Virus record (IMG/VR): IMGVR_UViG_3300049596_000773
Span: 1 to 51,359 of that record
Direction: 5' to 3' (one strand)
Length of the DNA stretch: 51,359 bases
DNA from: a virus
Taxonomy: Duplodnaviria; Caudoviricetes
The notes below the pieces were generated by a model. It had not been told where the DNA came from, did not search any database, and saw only the letters and a list, made by a program, of their open reading frames with translations. Positions 1 through 47,345 of this stretch are shown piece by piece (the stretch's first letter is position 1; each line of letters opens with the position of its first letter). Position numbers and translations under genes: made by a program.

Positions 1-127
1 AGAAAAGGCTCGCTCACTGGCGAAAGAACGCGGATTCCACTTCTGATCCATGCCGGACATCTTCGATACGCTCGAAGCTCCGCCAAAGGGTGATGTCTTC
101 GATCAAATTGCCCCCGAATCCAAGGGC
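1..127. repeat. Terminal direct repeat identical to 51233-51359 (circular assembly overlap)
   Basis: The first 127 nt match the last 127 nt. The length equals a common assembler k-mer, and the ORF ending at 51278 joins the ORF starting at 50 across the junction. Confidence 0.97.
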
Positions 128-3100
128 GACATTTTTGACTCGTTAGCGCCGGAAGCGGTTGACGCGGACGCTCTGGCGGCTGTGGACGAATATCTTGCGG
201 CGTCGTCAAACGTCACGCCAAAGACATCGTTGCCGGAACTCATCACGCCAGCGCAACCCGTCGCCGGGCCAAACATCGAAGGCGCTGGCTACGTGGAAAA
301 GCCGCTGCAATTCACCGCGCCGGAAACGGCACTGGGACAACTTGCGAAAGGCAACATTCCGGGTGCGGTCGGAACTGCGGTCGGAACCGCTGCTGGCGCT
401 GTTCGCGAATCACTGACGCCTATTCTTGGGCCGACCGAGGAACGGATTGCCGCTGAGTCCGTGCCGTGGGGAACCAATCCTGACGGCAGCGTGAAATACG
501 AATACAAGCCGATGGCGGACTTGATGACGCGCAAGGGCATCTTCGCCACGCCGGAAATGTTCGATCTTGCGCCGATTCCGCCCGATCCAAATGATCCTGC
601 GTGGGAGGCTGCACTCAAGGCCGGAACCAATCAGGCGGCGGCGTTTGCAAAGTTTGGCATGAGTCCAGGCGGAGTTTTGATGACGGCTATGGGCGGTGCC
701 GGTGCTCTTGCAAATGCGGCAAAGGGACTGGCTCCGGCTGGGCTTGGAGCGGAGAGCGCGGGCGCAGCGCAGATTGCTTCGACGCTCGCCAAGACAGGAA
801 AGGGTGCCGCTGGCTTCTTCGCCGTGGATATGGCAGCGGCAGCGCCGGAACAATTCGAGCAGGCGTTTAACGCGCCGACATTGCAGGGCAAGATTGAGGG
901 ATGGATTGGGGCGGTGTCGTCACTTGGCTTTTCGGCGCTGGCAACAAAACACGCCCTAGGGAAACCCCTTACTCCAGCTGAAAGCGGAAAGGTGGAAAGC
1001 GTTGCTGAGATAGTAAAGGGAGCGCCGGATGCTGTCCTGGAAGCGGTGGCGCAACCAAGAAACAACTTCGATGTTTATTCGCAAGCCATCGCTCAAAATG
1101 AGCTGATTCGTCGGTTCAAGGAGCAGCAAGCCGCACTCGCGCCGGAAGCCACTGCCGCAGCGGAGGTGGCGGCTACGACGCTGCCGAGTGGCAAGGCTGG
1201 ACCGCCTGACCCGGTGGCGACTGCTGCCGGTGCCGTCAAGACGGCGGAGGCTGCTGCGGCTGCTGGAAAGCCGTTCGCGCCAAACATTGAAGGGCCGATC
1301 ACTGAGGCGCAATACGGGCGCACGTTGGATGCGTTCGACGTGACGGCAAGAATGAAGCGCAAACCATCTTCGCCAGCCCCGTCGGGCACACCCACACCGG
1401 AACAACCGCCTTCGGTGGCTGGCGCACTTTCACCCGAGCCGACACGCACGGAGCCGTCGCCGGTCGCTACCCCGGCGGCGGCTGTGCCGGAAGCGAAGGC
1501 TGCTGAACCTACACAGCAGCAATACGACGCGATGGTTGCGGCTGATCGAGTAAAAAACTTAAAGCGACTCAAAGAGGAACGCAAAGACTTGATTTCGCAG
1601 TATGGAAATCAAGGTGAAAAGCATCCGCTTGGAAGGATGATTGGCGGGCTGAATCCTGCCGCCGTGAAGCTACAATCCATTCGTGGACAAATCGCACAAC
1701 TTGAACGGCTGATTGGCGAAACAAAACCGGAAAAGCCGGTGATGACTCCAATCTCAGGCACGAACGCTAGGCGCGAGATGGGATTGCTTTACGATGTGAA
1801 ATTTGGAGAGCGAACAGGGAAGATTGGAAAAAGCAATTTAGGGAAGTGGTATGCGGTGGAAAACGGCGAGATTGTCACGCAAGATTTCCGCACCGCTGCG
1901 GAAGCGCGTGATGCTTGGGCTAAAGCAGCCACCCCCACCCCCACCCCCGCGCCATCGCCCGCGCCCGCAGCGCAGGCGGCTGTGCCGAAACTCCGCGAAG
2001 GCCAGAAACAAGGTGACTTGCTCGGCGGCAGCGAAGACCTGACGCTGGTTGGCGAGCGCGTGCGAAGCGAAGCGCCCAAACCGAAAGGACCGGAACCGAC
2101 CGTTCAGCAGACCATCAGCGACGCCTTGGACGCCTACGGCGATTTGCCGAGCGCATGGGAGCATCTGGACAATCAGGTGAAGTCGCTGGAAAACAACAAG
2201 GCGAACAAGGCTGCTATCACCCGGCTCAACGCCGCCAAGCGCAAGATTGAGAACACTCTGGAAGAAGAGGCGCGGCGCGCGGAAGTGGAGCAGGTGGATG
2301 CTTTCAATACCGGCCTTTACGAACTGGAAAGCAGCATCAAGGAGCTTGGCGGCATCGCCACTACGACCGGAAAAGGCAAAGGGTCCGGCGGCGAACTGAG
2401 CCGCATCGCAGAGGCGCGGAAAGGCGCGCTCTTGAAGCTGTTTCGCAAGAACGCACCGTCGCATGACACGCTGCGCGAGGGATTGGAGGAACGCGGATTC
2501 CAGTTTTCCACACCGGACGAAATGTTCATGGCGCTGGAAGATTCAATGCGGTCAGGAAAGAAACTTTACGGCAGTCAGTTTCCCGAGGGATACACGGGCG
2601 GACCCGGTGCGATGGGGCCGGTGGAAGCGGCGTATCAGGCGGCGTCACGAAGGATTCTTGGCGGATATAACGCTGAGGTAGAAGCGGCGCAAATCCGGCG
2701 CGGACAGGTGCCGACAGTCAGCGAAGCGCGCAAGGAAGACCCGGTGACATTTGAGAACGCGATGGACGCGATTGAAAAGAATCCGGCACTGCCGGAAAAG
2801 CTGGTCGATGACATTCTCAAAAAGGAAAAGAAGTCCATTACCGATGAGGAGCAACAGATGCTTACCTATCGCCGTGCCGAGCTTGAAAACAAGATGGCGG
2901 CGGAAAGCGAGCGCGCCATTGATCCATCTTTGACACCTGAGCAACAAGCGGTTCACCAGACAAATGCGGAAGTTTTCGAGGCGCAACTGCTTCGCGCAGA
3001 AGAAGCGAATCGCATGGCTGGAACGGCCAGCGGTCGCGCCTTGCGGTCGCGGCAGATGCAGATGAATGACGATTACACCTACGCTGGGCTAATGATGCGC

Positions 3101-6100
3101 GAGCGCCGGGCGACGGGTGATGTTGTTCCAAAGGAACGCGCTGCGGAACTTAAAAAGACCGCCGAGGAATATAAGAAAGCGCAAGCCGAGGTGGACTTGG
3201 AAAGGGAGACTCGTCAAAAGCGGGACGAGGACGCGGTGATGGAAGCCGTAGTGGTCGAGATGGAAAGGGAATTGGAGGCTGCGGCGAAAACCGGAGCTAC
3301 CTATCATCCCAGCGTCATGCAGCACGCCAAGGAAATCGTGGAGCGCGCAAAAGGTGAGGCGGCGGATGCGTGGAAACGAATCCGTAGCCAAATGGGCAGC
3401 GAATCCGGCGCAGTGGGTGGTATTGGCGGACCCAAAGGAGAAGGTAATTACCTAGGCAAACCCACTAAACAGCAAATCGCTGCGAAGAATCGCGCAACCC
3501 TAATAAACGACGTTGCTCTCATTCTAAAGGCTAGGGTCTATGAGTTTGGTGTCAAGATGGCGGAGGCGGCGCAATACGTTCTTTTGAAGTCCGGCGACAT
3601 GGGTGACAGCATCCGTCCGATTCTTGCCAGAGCCGTAGCCAAGGCGAACACGATGATGGAACGGGAGCTTAATACGCGCCCGCAAAAGGTAAAAGAAGCT
3701 GTCAAAACCGGCGCGACGGCACCGGAGAAGCAGCCCAAAGCCAAGCCAACTCCAGAGTCGTATATCGACAAGGGGAAGGCGTCCGTGGTAGCTGGCGACG
3801 ATCCGCTTTACCGGAAGGAAATCGGCGAAGCGATTGATGGTGGAAATGTCACTGTCGAAACGCATAAGCTGATGAGCAGCGCGAGAAAGCTCGTTTATGA
3901 CATCGTGGTGGCGCATTGGGAGAATGGCGTGCGCGGAACTGATGCACTCATGGACGCGGCGCTCAAGACTGTGCAGGAATTTCTGCCAGATGCCACGTTG
4001 CGCGATATTCACCGGGCTTACGGCGAATACGGCAAGGTGAAGTTCCCAAACAAGGACGCTTTGAGCATGCAGCTTTCCGCCGCTTATCGGGAAACGAAGC
4101 TGATGGAGGATATTGCCCGCATGGAGAAGGACGACAAGGATGCGTTGCGTCGCGGATTTACACCGGCAAAGCCAAACCTTCGACAGCGTGAGCTTGCCAG
4201 TAAGCGTGCGGAGTTGCAAAAACTCAGGCAAGGAGAGCCATCTCCTGAAAAGTTGGCAGGAATCCAACAGGCGCGTCAAACCGCCTTGAAGAACCGGATG
4301 GAGGTCTTGGACAAGATGCTCAAGACTGGCGAAAAGCCGCCCAAAGGCCGAAAGGTGCCGGATGATGTTTTTACCGAGCAGTTGAAAAGCGAGAAGCAGG
4401 CAATGCAGGATTTGTGGAATGAAATCGAGGCAGCCAAGAATCCTCCACCACCTGAGCACATTGTTGAACTCGCCAGACTGCAAGACCGCGCCGACATCCT
4501 TCGTGACAGGCTGGCAAGAATGGAGCTGACTCAGCCAAAGGCCGAAGGAAAACCCACTGTGGATACGGCAGAGATTGCCGCTGCAAAGGCTGAAATAAAG
4601 CAGCTTTCCGACACGATGGCAGAGCTTCGCAAGCCCGTCCCGCTCTCCGACGCTCAGAAAGCGCTCGACAGCGCATTGATAGCACGCGAACGCGCCGGTC
4701 AGACCTTGGACGACATATCCACTGGCAAGGTGAAAGACCCGGCGAAGATCAAGGAGGCGCTGACGCAACTGGAAGAGGATGTTCGCCTCGAAACCGATGC
4801 GCTCAAGGCGCTGGCCGCCGAGATGCGCCGGGACGCCAAGCCAAAGAGTGATCCTGGCTATCTGAAAGAGCAGGCGCAAATCAAGGCACTCGAACGCGCC
4901 ATTGCCAGCTACGCCGAGAAAGTGGCGAAAGGTGACTTGGCCGGCAAAGGCAAGGTGCAGGGGCCGGACTCGCGCCGTGTAGCGCAGTTGAAGGCCATCC
5001 GCGATTCGCGCCGTGCCGCGTATCAGGCGGCTAGGAACGCCGGAAAGCCGGTGCTATCACCGGAACAGCGTTGGAACGCCACGCGACTAAAGGCACTGAC
5101 CAAGCGCGAGGCCGACTTTAGGGAGAAGATTCGCACCGGACAGTATGCGCGCCCTCCCAAAAGAGTTCCGCCGAAGATGGATCAAGCCACGCAGGACGCG
5201 CAAATCCGTGTGGATGCGATAAAGCAAAAGTTTCTCAAAGAGCAGTTCGATTACTACCAGAAACAACGCGCCACTAGCAAAAAGATCGTGGACGGCATCG
5301 GGCAGACGCTTCGTGCTGGCATCAATATCGTTTCCTCCACCGATTTGAGCGGATTCCGTCAAGGCATGGGCGCAACCATGATTGCTTTTGGAAAGACCGT
5401 GTTTCCGGTGGATGTCCGTCGCGGAGTTTCTGGCAAAACGCAGGTTGTTCTGACCAACCCGCTTAAATCGGCCATGATGATCCTAAAGCCGACCGCACGC
5501 ATGATTGTGGCCGGAATTTCGGAGCAAAAAGCGAGGCGCATGGAAAAGGCGAGAGAGAACCGGCCAAACGCCAAAAGCGGAGCGTATGACGCGATGGGCA
5601 TTGACCAGACAACTTTGGATACAAAGGTTCGCTCAAAGCATGAGGAAATGATGTATTCCGTTCTGGACGAATGGGCGCAGCTTCCAATACGCACCGGCTC
5701 AACCGGCAAAACCATCATCACGGCACCCGGAAAAGTTGCCGCCAAGGTTGTTCACGCATCCAACCGCGCCTTCAACACGCTGCTCAACGAAATGCGGCTG
5801 GACCTAGCCGATGCGCTTCTCGCGGAAAACTTTAGGGACCGCGCCCCGAGTCCAGCCGAATTGAAGGTGCTTGGAAACTTGGTGAACATATCCACCGGAC
5901 GCGGGAACATCAATCCAACCCTCGCCAGAGGCGCGGGGTTTGTGTTTTGGGCACCGTCACTTTTTGCCAGCCGTGTTAAGGGACTGACAATGGAACCAAT
6001 CTGGAGCATAAAGCAGCCATTCAAAGGAACAGGCCGCGCTCGCGCTGCTATTGCCAAGGACTACGCCCGCGTGATTATCAGCGGATACTTGCTCTGGAAA

Positions 6101-6568
6101 GTTGGGCAGATGTTCAGTGATGACGACGTTGACACCACTAACCCTACATCCAGCGACTTCGGCAAGATCGTTCGCGGCAACACGCGCATTGATCCGTGGG
6201 GAGGACATCAACAAGTTGCAGTTTTTGCTGCCAGAGCAATTACAGGAAAAACCACTTCCATAACCGGCAATGAGAGGGAAAACAACCTTGGCGATGTGAT
6301 TGCGAATTTCGGCAGAAACAAACTGCGACCGGACTGGGGAGCACTTTGGAACGCTTACGAAATTTACCACGACAAGCAAAGACCCGGAAGGCCGCAAACC
6401 TACTCAGAGGTTGTTGCGTCCATGTACACGCCCATGTCACTGCGCGATATTGCCGAGGTAATGCGCGACCGGGGCATGAGCGAAGGAGCGATTATCGAGG
6501 CTCTGGCCATGTTTGGCGCTGGCGTTGCTGTGTATGGCGACGAGGATGAGGCAAAGGCACGCCGATGA
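50..6568 (+). CDS. Giant (2172 aa) probable internal virion / DNA-ejection protein
   Basis: Very long Ala/Lys/Glu-rich helical ORF with three N-terminal D(I/V)FD repeats. On the circular map it follows two other low-complexity virion-type ORFs. Function is inferred from size and context. Confidence 0.65.
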   Translation: MPDIFDTLEAPPKGDVFDQIAPESKGDIFDSLAPEAVDADALAAVDEYLAASSNVTPKTSLPELITPAQPVAGPNIEGAGYVEKPLQFTAPETALGQLAKGNIPGAVGTAVGTAAGAVRESLTPILGPTEERIAAESVPWGTNPDGSVKYEYKPMADLMTRKGIFATPEMFDLAPIPPDPNDPAWEAALKAGTNQAAAFAKFGMSPGGVLMTAMGGAGALANAAKGLAPAGLGAESAGAAQIASTLAKTGKGAAGFFAVDMAAAAPEQFEQAFNAPTLQGKIEGWIGAVSSLGFSALATKHALGKPLTPAESGKVESVAEIVKGAPDAVLEAVAQPRNNFDVYSQAIAQNELIRRFKEQQAALAPEATAAAEVAATTLPSGKAGPPDPVATAAGAVKTAEAAAAAGKPFAPNIEGPITEAQYGRTLDAFDVTARMKRKPSSPAPSGTPTPEQPPSVAGALSPEPTRTEPSPVATPAAAVPEAKAAEPTQQQYDAMVAADRVKNLKRLKEERKDLISQYGNQGEKHPLGRMIGGLNPAAVKLQSIRGQIAQLERLIGETKPEKPVMTPISGTNARREMGLLYDVKFGERTGKIGKSNLGKWYAVENGEIVTQDFRTAAEARDAWAKAATPTPTPAPSPAPAAQAAVPKLREGQKQGDLLGGSEDLTLVGERVRSEAPKPKGPEPTVQQTISDALDAYGDLPSAWEHLDNQVKSLENNKANKAAITRLNAAKRKIENTLEEEARRAEVEQVDAFNTGLYELESSIKELGGIATTTGKGKGSGGELSRIAEARKGALLKLFRKNAPSHDTLREGLEERGFQFSTPDEMFMALEDSMRSGKKLYGSQFPEGYTGGPGAMGPVEAAYQAASRRILGGYNAEVEAAQIRRGQVPTVSEARKEDPVTFENAMDAIEKNPALPEKLVDDILKKEKKSITDEEQQMLTYRRAELENKMAAESERAIDPSLTPEQQAVHQTNAEVFEAQLLRAEEANRMAGTASGRALRSRQMQMNDDYTYAGLMMRERRATGDVVPKERAAELKKTAEEYKKAQAEVDLERETRQKRDEDAVMEAVVVEMERELEAAAKTGATYHPSVMQHAKEIVERAKGEAADAWKRIRSQMGSESGAVGGIGGPKGEGNYLGKPTKQQIAAKNRATLINDVALILKARVYEFGVKMAEAAQYVLLKSGDMGDSIRPILARAVAKANTMMERELNTRPQKVKEAVKTGATAPEKQPKAKPTPESYIDKGKASVVAGDDPLYRKEIGEAIDGGNVTVETHKLMSSARKLVYDIVVAHWENGVRGTDALMDAALKTVQEFLPDATLRDIHRAYGEYGKVKFPNKDALSMQLSAAYRETKLMEDIARMEKDDKDALRRGFTPAKPNLRQRELASKRAELQKLRQGEPSPEKLAGIQQARQTALKNRMEVLDKMLKTGEKPPKGRKVPDDVFTEQLKSEKQAMQDLWNEIEAAKNPPPPEHIVELARLQDRADILRDRLARMELTQPKAEGKPTVDTAEIAAAKAEIKQLSDTMAELRKPVPLSDAQKALDSALIARERAGQTLDDISTGKVKDPAKIKEALTQLEEDVRLETDALKALAAEMRRDAKPKSDPGYLKEQAQIKALERAIASYAEKVAKGDLAGKGKVQGPDSRRVAQLKAIRDSRRAAYQAARNAGKPVLSPEQRWNATRLKALTKREADFREKIRTGQYARPPKRVPPKMDQATQDAQIRVDAIKQKFLKEQFDYYQKQRATSKKIVDGIGQTLRAGINIVSSTDLSGFRQGMGATMIAFGKTVFPVDVRRGVSGKTQVVLTNPLKSAMMILKPTARMIVAGISEQKARRMEKARENRPNAKSGAYDAMGIDQTTLDTKVRSKHEEMMYSVLDEWAQLPIRTGSTGKTIITAPGKVAAKVVHASNRAFNTLLNEMRLDLADALLAENFRDRAPSPAELKVLGNLVNISTGRGNINPTLARGAGFVFWAPSLFASRVKGLTMEPIWSIKQPFKGTGRARAAIAKDYARVIISGYLLWKVGQMFSDDDVDTTNPTSSDFGKIVRGNTRIDPWGGHQQVAVFAARAITGKTTSITGNERENNLGDVIANFGRNKLRPDWGALWNAYEIYHDKQRPGRPQTYSEVVASMYTPMSLRDIAEVMRDRGMSEGAIIEALAMFGAGVAVYGDEDEAKARR

Positions 6569-13403: not shown

Positions 13404-14318
13404 GTGATTCTCGTCATTGCGTTCTGCCAGAAAGACAAGGCGACAACCGTTCGTCTTGCCAACTGGATTGCAGAATTAGGTGGCACGTCCCGGCATGATC
13501 TGCTGCTAGCATTTCACGAAGACACCACGCCGGACCCGATTCACGAAATCCTCAAACCGCACTTCAACCACGTCGGCGGATTCAAGATTAGCGACTCGGA
13601 GACGACTTACCCGGCCATTGCCAATATCATGTGGCATGAGTGCGTGAAGACCGTTGCTGACCAGTTCAATGTTCCGTGGTTCTGGATGGAACCGGATGCC
13701 GTGCCGCTGGTGCCGGAGTGGTTGGACAAGATCGAGGACGAATACCTTGCGGCCAAGAAGCCGTTCATGCTGGACAAGGTGATTACGCCTACGCGCTCGC
13801 ACAATAGCGGCGTGGGAGTGTATCCAGGCAGGGTGCGAGACTACACCATTCGCCTGTGGGAGCTTTCAAACATCCCGTGGGACGTATTCTTGGCGGAGGA
13901 GTTCACGCCGTTCACGCATCATACCGCGCTGATTCACGACAAGTTCTATCGGGTGTGGGAAGACCCGAACAGCGGTCCTCCGATTTTTCCTGACGCAGCA
14001 TCGCTGTCCATCATTGAACCGGGTGCCGTGCTTTTCCATCGTAACAAGGACGGCAGCCTAATGGATCGTCTGCGCGAATCGCGGGGTGGTGTAATCGCAG
14101 CACAGCCGCACTCATCGGCGGTAGGAGCTTGTTCAAGTCAAGCCCCCGCAACTGTGGACACGGATGCACTGCTGCGGAGAATCGCGGAACTAGAAGAAAA
14201 GCTGAAATTACAAACTGTAACAACTTCGGTTACAGAAGGAAAAAAACAGCGCACGCTGGAACAGATTCAGGCCGCAAAGGACAGGATGGCGAAGGCGCGT
14301 GCCGGGAGGAAGAAGTGA
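13404..14318 (+). CDS. Putative GT-A-fold glycosyltransferase-like protein
   Basis: WFWMEPDAVPL (ExD metal motif after a hydrophobic strand), SGVGVYP, PWD and a late FH motif. Confidence 0.55.
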   Translation: MILVIAFCQKDKATTVRLANWIAELGGTSRHDLLLAFHEDTTPDPIHEILKPHFNHVGGFKISDSETTYPAIANIMWHECVKTVADQFNVPWFWMEPDAVPLVPEWLDKIEDEYLAAKKPFMLDKVITPTRSHNSGVGVYPGRVRDYTIRLWELSNIPWDVFLAEEFTPFTHHTALIHDKFYRVWEDPNSGPPIFPDAASLSIIEPGAVLFHRNKDGSLMDRLRESRGGVIAAQPHSSAVGACSSQAPATVDTDALLRRIAELEEKLKLQTVTTSVTEGKKQRTLEQIQAAKDRMAKARAGRKK

Positions 14319-43279: not shown

Positions 43280-43537
43280 TCACAGCTTTTCATCCAGCAA
43301 CCGCAGCACGCCGAGCCAGTTCTCGCGCGTCTTGAAATAAATCTCCATCGTGGTCGCGCCGCCCTTCTCGTTCATCAGGTAGATGTCGATGCCGTAGAGT
43401 GAAGTGTCGTCCTTGTAGGCGTAGTAGCCCTTGAAGTCGATCTGGTTGAACGTAAACATCACGTATCCGTCCACATAGACCTTGACCCGCCCGTTGAAGA
43501 TTTTGAAGTCGTAGGTGAATTGAGGCTTGGCTGGCAT
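43280..43537 (-). CDS. Hypothetical aromatic beta-rich protein (85 aa)
   Basis: Good codon pattern on the minus strand; divergent from the gene at 43589. Confidence 0.65.
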   Translation of the reverse strand: MPAKPQFTYDFKIFNGRVKVYVDGYVMFTFNQIDFKGYYAYKDDTSLYGIDIYLMNEKGGATTMEIYFKTRENWLGVLRLLDEKL

Positions 43538-43547
43538 ATCCCCAACT

Positions 43548-43579
43548 CTCCCCTTGACTTTGCCTTTAGTCAAGGGGAG
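43548..43579. promoter_or_regulatory. Perfect 12-bp inverted repeat between divergent genes
   Basis: CTCCCCTTGACT-8 nt-AGTCAAGGGGAG carries TTGACT on both strands. Confidence 0.6.
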
Positions 43580-44039
43580 GTTCGGGCCATGAGCTACGCA
43601 AGAACTGCCAGTCTGCACAGGAATGGCGAAAAATTAGCTGTGCTGGTCGAAGTGGGGGTCCGAGACGAACGCCGCCTGCAAGTCCTGCTGGCTGAAACGC
43701 TCACCGCAATGGCTTCGCTGGAACGGGACGTGGAGAGCATGAGCGATGAGGCTGTCGCCGTGTATCTGGAGCAACGAGCGAGTCAGCATGTGACAATCAC
43801 CCCAAATCCATGACTTCATCACCACTTCCCACCCAAGCCCCCGCCAAGCGCGCCTGGACGCCCCGCCTGAGCGTCGCAGCGCGGTCCCTGACCGTTGGCA
43901 TGTATCTGGACTGCGCTGACCGTGCCGAGGCGCTGTGCGTGCAGGCGTATTGGCGCAATCGTGGTGGCGACACGCGGCGGATGACTGGACCGGACTTTGT
44001 GCGCGTTTGGAGGCTGGCTTGAACGGAATCAAATAGTTG

Positions 44040-44068
44040 TTGCGCGATTGTTTCGCGTGTGTTATACG
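44040..44068 (+). promoter_or_regulatory. Promoter of the RHH-Cas7-like operon
   Basis: TTGCGC-17-TATACG with an overlapping CGCGA-N5-TCGCG inverted repeat. Confidence 0.5.
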
Positions 44069-44076
44069 TTTGTGCA

Positions 44077-44220
44077 ATGAAGAAATTCACTGCCAGTATC
44101 AACACCCGCGTCACTCCGGCGACGCGGGATAACCTCAAGAAAAAAGCGCAACAGCGCAAAATCCGCCTGACCGACATCGCCCGCGAAGCTTTGGAGGAAA
44201 AGGCAAAATCTGACCTATGA
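44077..44220 (+). CDS. RHH-like regulator (47 aa, below the ORF-track cutoff)
   Basis: MKKFTASINTRVTPATRDNLKKKAQQRKIRLTDIAREALEEKAKSDL; ATGA overlap with the next gene. Confidence 0.7.
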   Translation: MKKFTASINTRVTPATRDNLKKKAQQRKIRLTDIAREALEEKAKSDL

Positions 44221-44825
44221 AATCCATCACTACAACGTGGACGGGCATCCGTCCGCTCATCATGTCGAATCCGCAGACCGTGGAAATCGCCAATCCGTTC
44301 GCGGTCAATTCGCGGCGAATCAACAACCTCCTGAAAGCCGCGCGCAAGAAGGGCGACGAAAACCGCATGGCGGAACTTGCCGACGAACAAAAGCGCGGCG
44401 ATTGGGAGGCAAGTGCCTATTGGGACACGAAAGAAAAACGCTTCTTCATTCCTGACACCTGCCTTCTAGCTTGCATCCGCAACGGAGCGGCGGCGGCAAA
44501 GAAGGGCAAGGACATCGACCGCGCCGTGATTATCACGGAAACGGAGGCGATCATCGAAACGGAAATCAAGCACAACAGCCTCGACGCCTACTATGCTGAT
44601 GACGCCTTCCGGCTGGAGTGCCCGGCAAAGGTTCCGCCCAAGACCGGCGCGCTGATATGGAAAGTGCGCTGCATGATGCCGACTGGATGGAAACTCAGCT
44701 TTGGCATCGAGTTTGACGAGAATATCGTCGCCGAGAAGTCGCTCCGCGAGGCGCTGGAATTGGCTGGGCGTCTCAGCGGAATCGGCGGATGGCGTCCCAA
44801 GTTTGGACGATTTTTAGTGAGCTAG
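44217..44825 (+). CDS. Stand-alone Cas7-like RAMP protein
   Basis: N-terminal strand ending GIRPLIM, FIP...L..CI..GA helix, W.LSF.I strand and C-terminal Gly-rich loop AGRLSGIGGWRPKFGRF, matching RAMP/Cas7 topology. Confidence 0.7.
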   Translation: MKSITTTWTGIRPLIMSNPQTVEIANPFAVNSRRINNLLKAARKKGDENRMAELADEQKRGDWEASAYWDTKEKRFFIPDTCLLACIRNGAAAAKKGKDIDRAVIITETEAIIETEIKHNSLDAYYADDAFRLECPAKVPPKTGALIWKVRCMMPTGWKLSFGIEFDENIVAEKSLREALELAGRLSGIGGWRPKFGRFLVS

Positions 44826-45242
44826 GCGAGGTCGGGTTATGCGACGCCTTGCAATGACTGGCCGCACACACCGCGCACGGGAAACCGTGGGCGGCAGTGC
44901 GGCGTGTCATGGAACGGCATGGCGTGGTCAGGCGAAGCGAAGCGGTGACGGGTCCACACACCGCGCTCTTTCGGGAGCGCGGCAGTGGGCGCGGCGCAGT
45001 GGCGCAAGGTGTTGCGTTGCAGCGCATGGCAGCGCGCGGCCTCTCACACCGCATCCGTTCGCGGGTGCGGCAGAGAGGCGCGGATTGGCGCTGCTAGGCT
45101 GGGCGACACATGGCATGCCCCGGCGCGGCGAGGCAAACACACAGCGGCTCACGGGCCGTTGCAGTTTGCCTTGCGCCAATGGGTTAGGCGATGCTGAGCC
45201 ATGACTGGCAATGCACAATCACCCACCTGAGACGTGGGCAGT
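44820..45242 (+). ncRNA. Array of five putative guide RNAs (NGY-NN pentamer tracts plus hairpin)
   Basis: Five units end in an ACACA/AATCA-hairpin-CAG handle (CAG at 44895, 44983, 45071, 45162, 45239). 51 of the 55 pentamers I counted have G at position 2. Confidence 0.8.
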
Positions 45243-45245
45243 TTT

Positions 45246-45713
45246 ATGACAACAGAACCAAACCAAGACAGTTCAGGCGATGCCGTCAGGCTTCCGCTCT
45301 GGAAAAACGCCCTCGACAAAATGCGCGCAACCGGCATCGGCTACGGGGAAGTATTCGACGCCAAGTTCTTCGAGGATGAACTCCGCACCAAACGCGACTC
45401 AATGCAGTTCGGACTCGGCATGTCGGCCATTCGCCGCGAACTGGAAAAGGACGGTTACTACATCACTGGACGCGGACAGAAGGGCAACCAGTTCGTGATC
45501 GTGCCGCCTGAGTCTAACGCTGACGTGATGGGTGGCTACGCCCGGCAGGCGCTAGATTCGCTGAGTCGAGGCTTCATCCTTGGAACCAGCACGCGACTGG
45601 ACACGCTCTCCAAGCGCGACCGCGACCGCCACGAATCGCTGCTGGCAAAAATGGCCACACGATTGGCGTTGCTGAAACTTCCAATTGGAGAAGCGAGAAA
45701 GTTGCTAAAATGA
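45246..45713 (+). CDS. Hypothetical protein downstream of the RNA array
   Basis: ATG directly after the last hairpin; 155 aa. Confidence 0.7.
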   Translation: MTTEPNQDSSGDAVRLPLWKNALDKMRATGIGYGEVFDAKFFEDELRTKRDSMQFGLGMSAIRRELEKDGYYITGRGQKGNQFVIVPPESNADVMGGYARQALDSLSRGFILGTSTRLDTLSKRDRDRHESLLAKMATRLALLKLPIGEARKLLK

Positions 45714-45849
45714 AGCCCCCGCCCATCACCTGCACCCTCTGCGGCGCGCTGGCTCGCCGACATCTGAACCTGTGGCAGTGCCGCCGGAATCCGCGCCACA
45801 TTGCGGACCTGTTGCGCCGGGTCTGGTTCGTGTGCGGAGAGAATGGGAA

Positions 45850-46584
45850 CTAAAGCTCCACCGGGAGCAGCGGCTTGGCGCGGGCGGCGAGTTTCAGCCG
45901 CCAGTAGTTTGCAGCGGTGGCGAACTGCTCGGCTGGAGTCACGCCACGGTTCGTCTCGTGCGCGGAAATGTGCGCGTCGCCGATGCGGTCCCAATGGTAG
46001 CTAGGCTGTCCATCGAAGTCGCGGCGGTCGAAATATGAGTTCCCTGCAATCCACAGGTCCGACCCCACCACCACGTCCGGCGTGAACAGCTTAAAGCACA
46101 GGTCCACTTCGGCGGGAGTCAGTGTCTCGAAAAGCGTAACTTGCCATCCGTGGTAGCTGATCTTCTTGGTGTGATCTGCGTAATGCGCCGTGTAGTTCTG
46201 ACCGCACACGGACAGCGGAAACTCGTTGCGCTCGTTGACGCGATTCCAAGCCGCGACCATTTGCGTGATGTGCTGCGGGTCAATCCAATCGTCGTCATCG
46301 AGGATCGTCCAGCAATCCGTCCGCACCATTTTCAGGTTGGCGACGTGTTGATAGACCGGGCGCAGGTAGGTGTCCTCGTCGTTGACGACTTCGGTGCGGA
46401 GCCGGTGCGAGTCCGGGACGTTGAGCAATCGGAGCGGCGTCGGATGGCGGTTGATGATGAGCAGACGCGCCAACGGGTAATCCTGCGCCATGAACGAGCG
46501 GATGGCGCGAGCAATCTTGTCGGGGTGCCCTCCCACGGTTTCCATGATGACGGTGACGGTCGGGTTCTGGACGTGTGTTCTCAT
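45850..46584 (-). CDS. Glycosyltransferase family 2-like protein
   Basis: RAIRSFMAQDYP..RLLIIN and ILDDDDWI (DxD) motifs. Confidence 0.75.
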   Translation of the reverse strand: MRTHVQNPTVTVIMETVGGHPDKIARAIRSFMAQDYPLARLLIINRHPTPLRLLNVPDSHRLRTEVVNDEDTYLRPVYQHVANLKMVRTDCWTILDDDDWIDPQHITQMVAAWNRVNERNEFPLSVCGQNYTAHYADHTKKISYHGWQVTLFETLTPAEVDLCFKLFTPDVVVGSDLWIAGNSYFDRRDFDGQPSYHWDRIGDAHISAHETNRGVTPAEQFATAANYWRLKLAARAKPLLPVEL

Positions 46585-46586
46585 GG

Positions 46587-47345
46587 TTATGGTCCGCTGG
46601 GGCCGGTAGGCCCCGTGGGTCCCGTGGGTCCCGTTGGCCCCGTGGGTCCGGTAGGTCCGGTAGGGCCAGTCGGCCCCGTTGGGCCGGTTGGGCCTGTCCC
46701 CGCCGTCCACGCCCAGTTCGGCACAAGCCCCCAGATCAACTCTCCGCCGGACGTGGCTTTCCGAGCCTTTTGCAGATGGGTGGTGGTAAGCTGGTCGATG
46801 CGAAGGCTTGTTTTCAGGTCCGGGAAATCGCCGGGATCAGGAAACGGCGCGTCCGGCATACCATTGACCGTGCTCTTTCCGGTCTGGCAGGCGCGAACGT
46901 AGGCAATGGGTTGTCGCCAGACGTTGCTTACCCCGGCGTTGTTCGTGAACATCGAGTTGCCCATTGTTGCGCTCGGTCCCCACGTAAGAGTTGGGCCTGC
47001 GGTGATTGCTCCGGCGAAGCTAAACGTCATCTCCAGCCACACCCAATCCCCGCTCGTCAGGGTCATCCGGTTGTCGATGTTGGCGATGGCGGCGGTCTGT
47101 GTCAGGTCGGCTTCATCGAGGAAAATCCATCCGCGCCGCACGTAGGCGTAAGCGGTCGTCTCGGCATTGGACGTGAAGCCCGCGCCATACACCTCGAACG
47201 GGTGGAGCTTGAGCAGCGCCGGGATGCGGGTGAGAGAATCGGGGTTGCGCCCAGGATATTCGGACGCGCCTCCGGCATCCGGCTCCGGCAGTCCGGCTGG
47301 AATGACTTCCCGGATACGGGCCAGCGTGGCGTCAAGTTCTTCCAT
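46587..47345 (-). CDS. Virion-type protein with a C-terminal collagen-like (GPT)n tail
   Basis: 12 Gly-Pro-X triplets (10 of them GPT) encoded at 46590-46694. Confidence 0.75.

Follow-up and report, generated by a model that had tools for sequence, protein, structure and literature searches.

A probable VIPR locus with an array of five pentamer-coded guide RNAs in a lake-water phage

The 51,359-base virus record IMGVR_UViG_3300049596_000773, analysed over its whole length and called the window from here on, carries a locus at 44040-45713 in which four features lie in the same orientation on the plus strand. A gene for a small RHH-like protein is followed by a gene for a 202-aa protein, a 420-nt stretch without a convincing gene and a gene for a 155-aa protein (Table 1). 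An open reading frame map confirms this gene order, which an earlier reading of the sequence alone (the original prediction) had proposed. The locus is very probably a VIPR (Viral Interference Programmable Repeat) system of a lake-water phage, and four lines of evidence lead to this assignment: the homology of the 202-aa protein to SUSP1 Vipr, its predicted Csm3-like fold, the pentamer code of the 420-nt stretch, and the presence of such arrays beside homologues of the protein. The operon (44077-45713) encodes a small RHH protein, Vipr, an array of five vrRNAs and a Vap-like winged-helix protein.

According to the preprint that describes them, VIPR systems comprise a minimal RAMP protein (Vipr), vrRNAs made of 9-16 YNNGG repeats with a structured 3′ tail and usually one accessory gene (vap), and they are mostly viral; their binding silences the transcription of rival satellites or phages (10.64898/2026.04.26.720920). 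The same preprint names seven VIPR types and mentions the alternative handles NNNGG, YNNNG and NNNNG. We describe each pentamer as a three-base handle and two free bases, NN.

Within the 420-nt region, the identity between bases separated by 5, 10 and 15 positions is 0.38, 0.375 and 0.355, and at other lags it is 0.21-0.31 (0.249 at lag 3). The lag-5/10 statistic is 0.113, compared to 0.004 +/- 0.018 in 2000 dinucleotide-preserving shuffles (z 6.2; 0/2000 reach 0.113), and the region ranks at the top of 1019 sliding windows of the record, where the background maximum is 0.053. This autocorrelation bears out the five-base register proposed originally. The four best eight-pentamer runs of YNNGG type on the plus strand all lie inside the array, and neither a scan for such runs nor a covariance model scan found a second array elsewhere in the record. 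More general tools were silent: Tandem Repeats Finder missed the array entirely, Rfam had nothing near any gathering score in 43500-46000, and ARAGORN found no tRNA-like spacers in the array.

The array consists of five units, each ending in CAG (at 44897, 44985, 45073, 45164 and 45241), with lengths of 72, 88, 88, 91 and 77 nt in order and 8-13 pentamers each. Five units of 77-91 nt had been predicted; the count stands, and the first unit is shorter than that range. The pentamer counts compare with a search threshold of 4 and a characterised range of 9-16 in the preprint. When the 56 pentamers are laid out in GGYNN register, handle position 1 is G in 30/56, position 2 is G in 50/56 and position 3 is C or T in 47/56, and positions 4 and 5 are near-uniform (0.08 and 0.02 bits). 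The claim that an NGY triplet is constrained and that NN is free agrees with these counts, and the pentamer layout proposed for unit 2 was reproduced letter for letter. The consensus here is xGY-NN, which lies near the YNNNG alternative of the preprint. Unit 4 has the cleanest GGY handles; unit 1 is degenerate and may be partly a leader.

We next consider the protein encoded directly upstream of the array. The 202-aa protein matches PDB chain 36pp_D, annotated as SUSP1 Vipr protein, over its full length (phmmer E 8.8e-18, 68 bits, query 2-201, chain 2-187), and this is the sole chain that it matches among the sequences of solved structures. The likeness to VIPR that the original prediction had suggested is well founded. 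The protein belongs to phrog_4652, a PHROGs family of unknown function (E 1.8e-32), and it has no Pfam family and no PADLOC family. An AlphaFold model built from 39 homologues (pLDDT 92.3, pTM 0.85) has 53 matches at E <= 1e-3 in the PDB fold library (Foldseek; best E 8.9e-6, TM score about 0.5), and the top matches are type III Csm, Cmr and type VII backbone subunits, including Staphylococcus epidermidis Csm3 (5yjd_A); the library ends on 8 April 2026 and holds no Vipr entry. The protein is predicted to fold like Csm3/Cas7, and the RAMP-type protein with a glycine loop that had been proposed agrees with this model. Its C-terminal G-loop reads G-I-G-G-W-R-P-K-F-G-R-F. Across the 39 homologues, G188, W192, P194 and F196-F199 are invariant, and the loop G-x-G-x-W-R-P-K-F-G-R-F as a whole is invariant or nearly so. 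By our own reading of the phmmer alignment, the SUSP1 residues R138, W178 and R179, which contact RNA, are kept as R151, W192 and R193, and the thumb arginine R151 is nearly invariant in the homologues. The predicted architecture is that of a minimal RAMP protein, with a single RRM core, a glycine-rich loop and a thumb, the last judged by the aligned arginine.

Each of the internal units 1-4 ends in an element of 40-44 nt with a fixed order: a 7-nt arm that includes the last pentamer, ACA, a 9-bp hairpin, CA, and a second 7-nt arm that begins at the G of CAG and extends into the first pentamer of the next unit. The tail has two helices, of which the outer one joins, by base pairing, the last bases of a guide to the first bases of the guide that follows. 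We built a covariance model from 15 copies of the element; within the record it matches the four internal elements alone (E 1.7e-9 to 3.6e-12), and in the related loci it matches 144 copies, distributed over 72 loci and always on the vipr strand. Among 123 distinct copies, 96.5% of cells are paired, compared to 36-46% when the partners are slid by 1-3 columns, both-sided changes occur in 15/16 pairs, and no shuffle attains the observed values. This alignment was fitted to the covariance model, which favours structure, and the margin is nonetheless large. A free minimum free energy fold of 44820-45250 also recovers all four elements (z -6.1). The earlier description of a hairpin that varies in sequence and keeps its pairing, followed by CAG, holds over the junction copies.

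The 5′ and 3′ ends of one window unit are not mutually complementary, and the outer helix therefore forms across the boundary with the neighbouring unit. This helix may mark the site at which a precursor is cut, or the complete element, with the first bases behind CAG, may cap the upstream RNA at its 3′ end. Arrays whose RNAs abut by a one-base overlap have been reported (10.64898/2026.04.26.720920), and they may be the same thing as the boundary-spanning helix here. Unit 5 closes with a 5-bp hairpin, CAG and TTTT, behind which the ATG of the 155-aa gene follows at once; the hairpin scores as terminator-like. Its tail has no match to the junction covariance model; relatives carry another stem sequence at the same place with the pairing kept. 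We also observed that this ATG follows CAG-TTTT directly (45239-45248), without a Shine-Dalgarno sequence. If cutting occurs behind CAG, next to no leader would remain on the vap mRNA.

Table 1. Features of the locus in the window, and second arrays beside the vap-like gene in six close relatives (positions in the gathered loci)
Feature	Coordinates	Strand	Basis or remarks
Upstream non-coding stretch	44036..44076	+	possible promoter/operator of the operon, function inferred only
RHH-like open reading frame, 47 aa	44077..44220	+	weak Pfam NikA-like match
vipr, 202 aa, minimal RAMP (Cas7-like)	44217..44825	+	homology to SUSP1 Vipr, predicted fold
vrRNA array region, 420 nt, without a convincing gene	44826..45245	+	between vipr and the 155-aa gene
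vrRNA unit 1	44825..44897	+	8 pentamers 44825-44864; tail J1 44861-44904 (7 nt into unit 2); covariance model E 1.7e-9
vrRNA unit 2	44896..44985	+	12 pentamers 44896-44955; tail J2 44951-44992; covariance model E 3.6e-12
vrRNA unit 3	44983..45073	+	12 pentamers 44983-45042; tail J3 45039-45080; covariance model E 2.2e-11
vrRNA unit 4	45072..45164	+	13 pentamers 45072-45136; tail J4 45132-45171; covariance model E 5.2e-11
vrRNA unit 5	45162..45245	+	11 pentamers 45162-45216; 5-bp hairpin 45222-45238; CAG, TTTT
vap-like accessory gene, 155 aa	45246..45713	+	start is the ATG common to relatives
Second array, relative 1	L025:4350-4560		
Second array, relative 2	L035:5365-5560		
Second array, relative 3	L029:5542-5740		
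Second array, relative 4	L106:1897-2100		
Second array, relative 5	L030:5520-5720		
Second array, relative 6	L032:1456-1660		

The association between Vipr and pentamer arrays extends well beyond this record. Vipr has 129 database homologues at E <= 1e-3, and it matches 123 phage records, mostly enterobacterial Ounavirinae at about 30% identity. We gathered 184 related loci, 24 from genomes, 80/126 from IMG/VR and 80/300 from metagenomes, and scored an array as present when a 200-nt window between -1.5 and +1.8 kb of vipr had a lag-5 statistic above the maximum of 2012 background windows. Pentamer-periodic DNA adjoins vipr in 138/157 distinct loci (103 downstream, 35 upstream), which is what the original prediction had expected of homologues. 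About half of the 19/157 loci without a periodic window are truncated contigs, and about half are distant chromosomal loci, mostly alphaproteobacterial. The arrays of close relatives (74-98% protein identity) hold 3 to 8 or more units and are much cleaner, with NNGGC pentamers. In the close loci (21 loci, 100 runs, 1290 pentamers), the first handle base is G in 65% and NN carries 0.06 and 0.00 bits; the corresponding figures of 90% for G2 and Y3 are partly built in by the run finding.

Guide content varies by whole units. Eight loci, with 5 distinct arrays, share units 1 and 2 at 91-100% identity, with differences that fall at NN positions or keep the pyrimidine, and the guides of units 3-5 have no match among the 184 loci. 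The 17 close arrays contain 64 guide clusters, 53 unique and 11 shared, and their gene-proximal units sort them into three groups. Two close arrays differ by one whole inserted unit, and some units are found again with other neighbours. Contigs from a lake DNA run (X11) follow the window precisely up to where junction elements 3 and 4 end (45080 and 45169); past these junctions they run into other guides, which are found in two of the gathered loci. Because the contigs break at the junctions and other guides follow, the sample holds array variants. Together, these patterns point to an exchange of whole units at the junction elements, by a mechanism that we infer. One joint in a DNA run, present in a single contig with a 30-nt side, skips 44967-45033.

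The identity of the first handle base is associated with one protein residue, the one before the G-loop Trp. Where this residue is Asp (83 loci, 3849 pentamers), the first handle base is G in 84.5% of pentamers; where it is Gly (28 loci), the frequency is 63.7%, and it is 50% with Asn (1 locus), 7% with Val (2 loci) and 10% with Ala (1 locus). The comparison of Asp with the rest gives a Mann-Whitney p of 2e-13, in which related loci share both traits and are therefore not independent events. The association fits the solved contact of SUSP1 D177: according to the structural preprint, D177 hydrogen-bonds the first G of the handle, and its substitution by alanine abolished silencing (10.64898/2026.04.26.720927).

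We now turn to the 155-aa gene, which is probably the VIPR accessory gene and probably has a winged-helix-like fold. By tblastn, a homologue is present in 137/184 vipr loci, on the vipr strand and 3′ of vipr except in two (L086 and L180). Neither Pfam nor PHROG nor PADLOC has a family for the protein, and a tblastn search of 50,697 phage records gave no match. Phage wV8, which belongs to the same subfamily as SUSP1 (Ounavirinae), has the order repeat region, vipr, 146-aa gene, repeat region. Direct comparison with the wV8 146-aa protein, gp095, is not significant by either BLASTP (E 1.6) or hhalign (probability 0.7%). A profile built from 140 locus hits reaches the wV8 post-vipr gene with an i-Evalue of 3e-5 among 9725 open reading frames, over model positions 54-138/144; a later profile E of 3e-13 includes the wV8 hit in the profile, and 3e-5 is the independent figure. 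Because the profile match and the gene's position concur, we take the two proteins as remote homologues. In the structural model (pLDDT 85.2), the N-terminal half follows the order helix-strand-helix-helix-hairpin and long helices make up the C-terminal part; its Foldseek matches are weak only, mostly to winged-helix regulators (best E 0.027). The preprint describes type II vap genes as predicted DNA binders (10.64898/2026.04.26.720920). The winged-helix-like model fits that description, and the locus therefore looks type II-like, a likeness drawn through the vap gene and not through the preprint's own classification.

By analogy with SUSP1 and the preprints, the genes and the array would share a transcript, from which RNAs of about 70-95 nt would be cut. 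Vipr protomers would then line up on each RNA, one per pentamer, with xGY held and the two free bases presented, and the hairpin tail would cap the RNA's 3′ end. The concatenated NN bases would pair with double-stranded DNA read as NN-x-NN-x, if the rule of one skipped base applies to this clade, and the binding would block transcription of a competing phage, satellite or other mobile element. For characterised systems, the preprints report one Vipr protomer per repeat, a sequestered GGY, and NN bases that pair with double-stranded DNA with one base skipped between dinucleotides (10.64898/2026.04.26.720920; 10.64898/2026.04.26.720927). They also describe protomers that polymerise along the guide RNA with fixed periodicity and thumb-mediated base flipping, and in the structure two adjacent protomers jointly hold one GGY (10.64898/2026.04.26.720927). 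The proposal of one subunit per NGY comes near this published arrangement. The other parts of that proposal, a lone Cas7-like RAMP that polymerises on pentamer-coded RNAs, a discontinuous guide spelled by NN and a hairpin handle, agree with the preprints.

Several results weigh against assigning the locus to VIPR. Exact GGY occurs in only 26/56 pentamers, with several broken handles in units 1, 2 and 5, and the residue equivalent to SUSP1 D177 is Gly191. The link to vap genes is remote and rests on one profile match. The promoter that the original prediction had placed 5′ of the RHH gene was not found in a sigma-70 consensus scan. We found no target for the window's guides in 1.1 Mb of related loci plus the record (best 16/18 for unit 1, at most 75% for the others). 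Exact-only scans of IMG/VR with units 4, 2, 3 and 5 gave 0 matches each, and unit 4 gave 0 matches with up to 3 mismatches in five related viral records. When 325 guides were compared to all loci, a small local set, a one-base skip did no better than skips of 0, 2 or 3. Finally, no metatranscriptome contig covers the array, among short assembled contigs from one run.

The scope of these negative results is limited. The target searches were small or exact-only, are narrower than the preprint's nhmmer searches, which were gapless, took one wildcard per handle and asked for at least 80% of NN bases to match, and do not show that targets are absent. Conversely, when 350 guides of relatives were compared to the record, the best match was 83%, with no excess for a skip of 1. 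There is no self-target in the window (best self-match 75% of NN bases), and the VIPR preprint likewise reports no self-targets for its systems (10.64898/2026.04.26.720920). The only RNA library with matching words was one metatranscriptome run (16% of sampled words), whose contigs cover 43954-44186, 44696-44806 and 45258-45524, corresponding to the RHH region, the 3′ end of vipr and the vap gene. This library may contain DNA, and its contigs show neither expression, nor its absence, nor RNA ends.

The imperfect handles could mean that the VIPR locus is partly decayed or retired, with an intact protein but with units 1, 2 and 5 holding too few GGY handles to load Vipr, so that the system would be weakened or serve only as a decoy or leader. 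The contrast between 26/56 exact handles and the much cleaner arrays of close relatives favours this explanation, as do the missing targets for every unit and the lack of the second, post-vap array that six relatives carry. However, the degenerate units 1 and 2 are those kept across 8 loci, which argues for selection, and their differences respect the code, falling at NN or keeping the pyrimidine. Both genes, vipr and vap, are intact, at 88-98% identity to their counterparts in relatives. Moreover, a weak first G is found in every lineage without Asp at the D177 position, and the weak first G here is therefore a lineage trait and not a sign of decay. We judge decay to be improbable.

Two further explanations would do away with guide RNAs altogether. 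The region could be a structured leader or attenuator whose hairpins control or end transcription into the 155-aa gene and in which the pentamers are incidental, and the last hairpin, its TTTT, the ATG directly behind them and the terminator-like score all suit such a role, as does folding far better than shuffles (z -6.1). A leader would leave unexplained why a 5-nt code with two free positions recurs in 138/157 loci, why the neighbouring gene is homologous to a protein solved with such RNAs, and why hypervariable guide cassettes alternate with conserved tails; we consider it very unlikely. The region could instead be translated, since a 121-codon open frame (44839-45204, plus strand) spans the array and could encode a 121-aa protein. 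Yet GC-rich GGC repeats are naturally stop-poor, and the period is five and not three (identity 0.38 at lag 5 vs 0.249 at lag 3). Relatives differ by whole units of 72-91 nt, and 53/64 guide clusters are unique, so no reading frame can be conserved, and a protein-coding origin is hardly credible.

The wider record is that of a phage. Its genes include a large terminase subunit, an endolysin, two DNA methyltransferases, a replication initiator, a DnaC-like loader, an HNH nuclease and a tail-fibre-like gene. None of 18 tested record proteins matches PADLOC, cas models included, and repeat scans and Tandem Repeats Finder detected no CRISPR-type repeats in the record, as the original prediction had stated for both. 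The context is thus a virus record with one pentamer array, no cas match among the 18 proteins and no CRISPR array. Near-identical DNA occurs in lake-water metagenomes, with 22 of the 24 runs listed holding at least half of the sampled words; five of these runs are possible sources of the record.

Upstream of vipr, the RHH-like protein has a Pfam NikA-like match at E 2.4e-4, under the curated cut-off, and the stop of its gene overlaps the vipr start (ATGA). An RHH gene lies 5′ of vipr in only 13/184 related loci, all in the closest clade. Tandem Repeats Finder reports an 11-nt direct repeat at 44037-44063. Together with a short inverted repeat (arms and spacer of 5 nt each), it lies just 5′ of the RHH gene, where the RHH protein may have its operator. 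Downstream, an open reading frame for a Cys-rich 47-aa protein at 45710-45853 (plus strand) shares bases with the stop of the vap-like gene; Pfam, PHROG and PADLOC gave no match for it, nor did tblastn in the 184 related loci. In six close relatives, a second vrRNA array of two units lies directly 3′ of the vap-like gene (Table 1) and ends in a strong terminator-like GC hairpin in 5/6; the window has the 47-aa open reading frame there instead. Elsewhere in the record, a tRNA-Glu gene (anticodon CTC) lies at 14080-14152 (plus strand), inside the phage's plus-strand gene block, and a 2172-aa open reading frame at the record start (50-6568, plus strand) has no PHROG or PADLOC family. A long run of collagen-like G-P-T triplet repeats lies in the minus-strand tail-fibre-like gene, at 46587-46726 (minus) and 46141-46902 (plus).

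The locus leaves the picture of VIPR, a newly described RNA-guided system that binds DNA, unchanged and adds to it a well-resolved freshwater clade with more than 100 related loci. It provides three leads. One concerns the separation of abutting guide RNAs by a covarying helix across their boundary. Another concerns the turnover of guide sets in the absence of Cas1/Cas2, by cassettes of whole units in which the gene-proximal ones are conserved. The third is which residue sets the handle code, as Asp or Gly before the G-loop Trp tracks the conservation of the first G. These leads would matter for the engineering of orthogonal VIPR tools and for the understanding of phage-phage conflict in lakes. 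Tentatively, we propose that the freshwater-clade array is a cassette system with rules of its own, in which a boundary helix serves both cutting and unit swapping and the handle is tunable, although we hold this proposal as a whole to be doubtful. The outer helix may set the cutting site of the precursor and also offer short homology for the swapping of whole guide units, which would explain the shared proximal and unique distal units, the whole-unit insertions and the contig breaks at junctions. Likewise, handle specificity may be tunable, with lineages without Asp having relaxed or replaced the first handle base. If true, this co-variation between protein and RNA could be used to design orthogonal VIPR pairs.

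We conclude by comparing the locus to known systems. The phrase 'candidate non-CRISPR RNA-guided phage system' in the original prediction implied novelty, and in this respect it does not hold: the locus is not a new kind of system, the kind having been in print since April 2026 (10.64898/2026.04.26.720920), with a further VIPR preprint at 10.64898/2026.10.15.759431. The closest system is the characterised type II VIPR of SUSP1 (PDB 36pp). Both share full-length Vipr homology, a Csm3-like predicted fold and a W-R-P-x-F-G-R-F G-loop; guide RNAs of tandem pentamers, in which a G-Y part is fixed and two bases vary freely, with a structured tail at the 3′ end; a remote-family accessory gene beside vipr; and a phage-borne setting without cas genes or a CRISPR array. 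They differ in several respects. The SUSP1-type locus of wV8 has the order vrRNA, vipr, vap, array, whereas the order here is RHH, vipr, array, vap, with an extra RHH gene that is limited to the closest clade. The tail here has two helices and reaches into the next unit, unlike the pseudoknot that is reported for the SUSP1 clade. The first G is weak here (30/56), with Gly as the equivalent of D177, and the Ounavirinae Vipr proteins are only about 30% identical to the protein studied here.

The locus is not a class 1 CRISPR-Cas effector: it shares the fold only, with no cas matches among the 18 proteins tested and no CRISPR-type repeats. Like the Cas7 backbone subunits (Csm3 of type III-A, Cmr4 and type VII Cas7), its Vipr has an RRM-based RAMP fold and a glycine-rich loop, but the identity is 9-14%, and other cas genes (18 proteins) and CRISPR repeats are lacking here. 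Class 1 complexes follow a 6-nt period with one base flipped, whereas VIPR follows a 5-nt period with three bases sequestered, and its published target is double-stranded DNA read by a gapped code. VIPR has been proposed to predate CRISPR. As in CRISPR arrays, structured conserved elements alternate with variable guides, and gene-proximal units are shared while distal ones are unique. In contrast to CRISPR arrays, the repeats here keep structure and not sequence, with several classes and compensatory changes, the spacers are periodic, and the locus has no Cas1/Cas2 acquisition genes.

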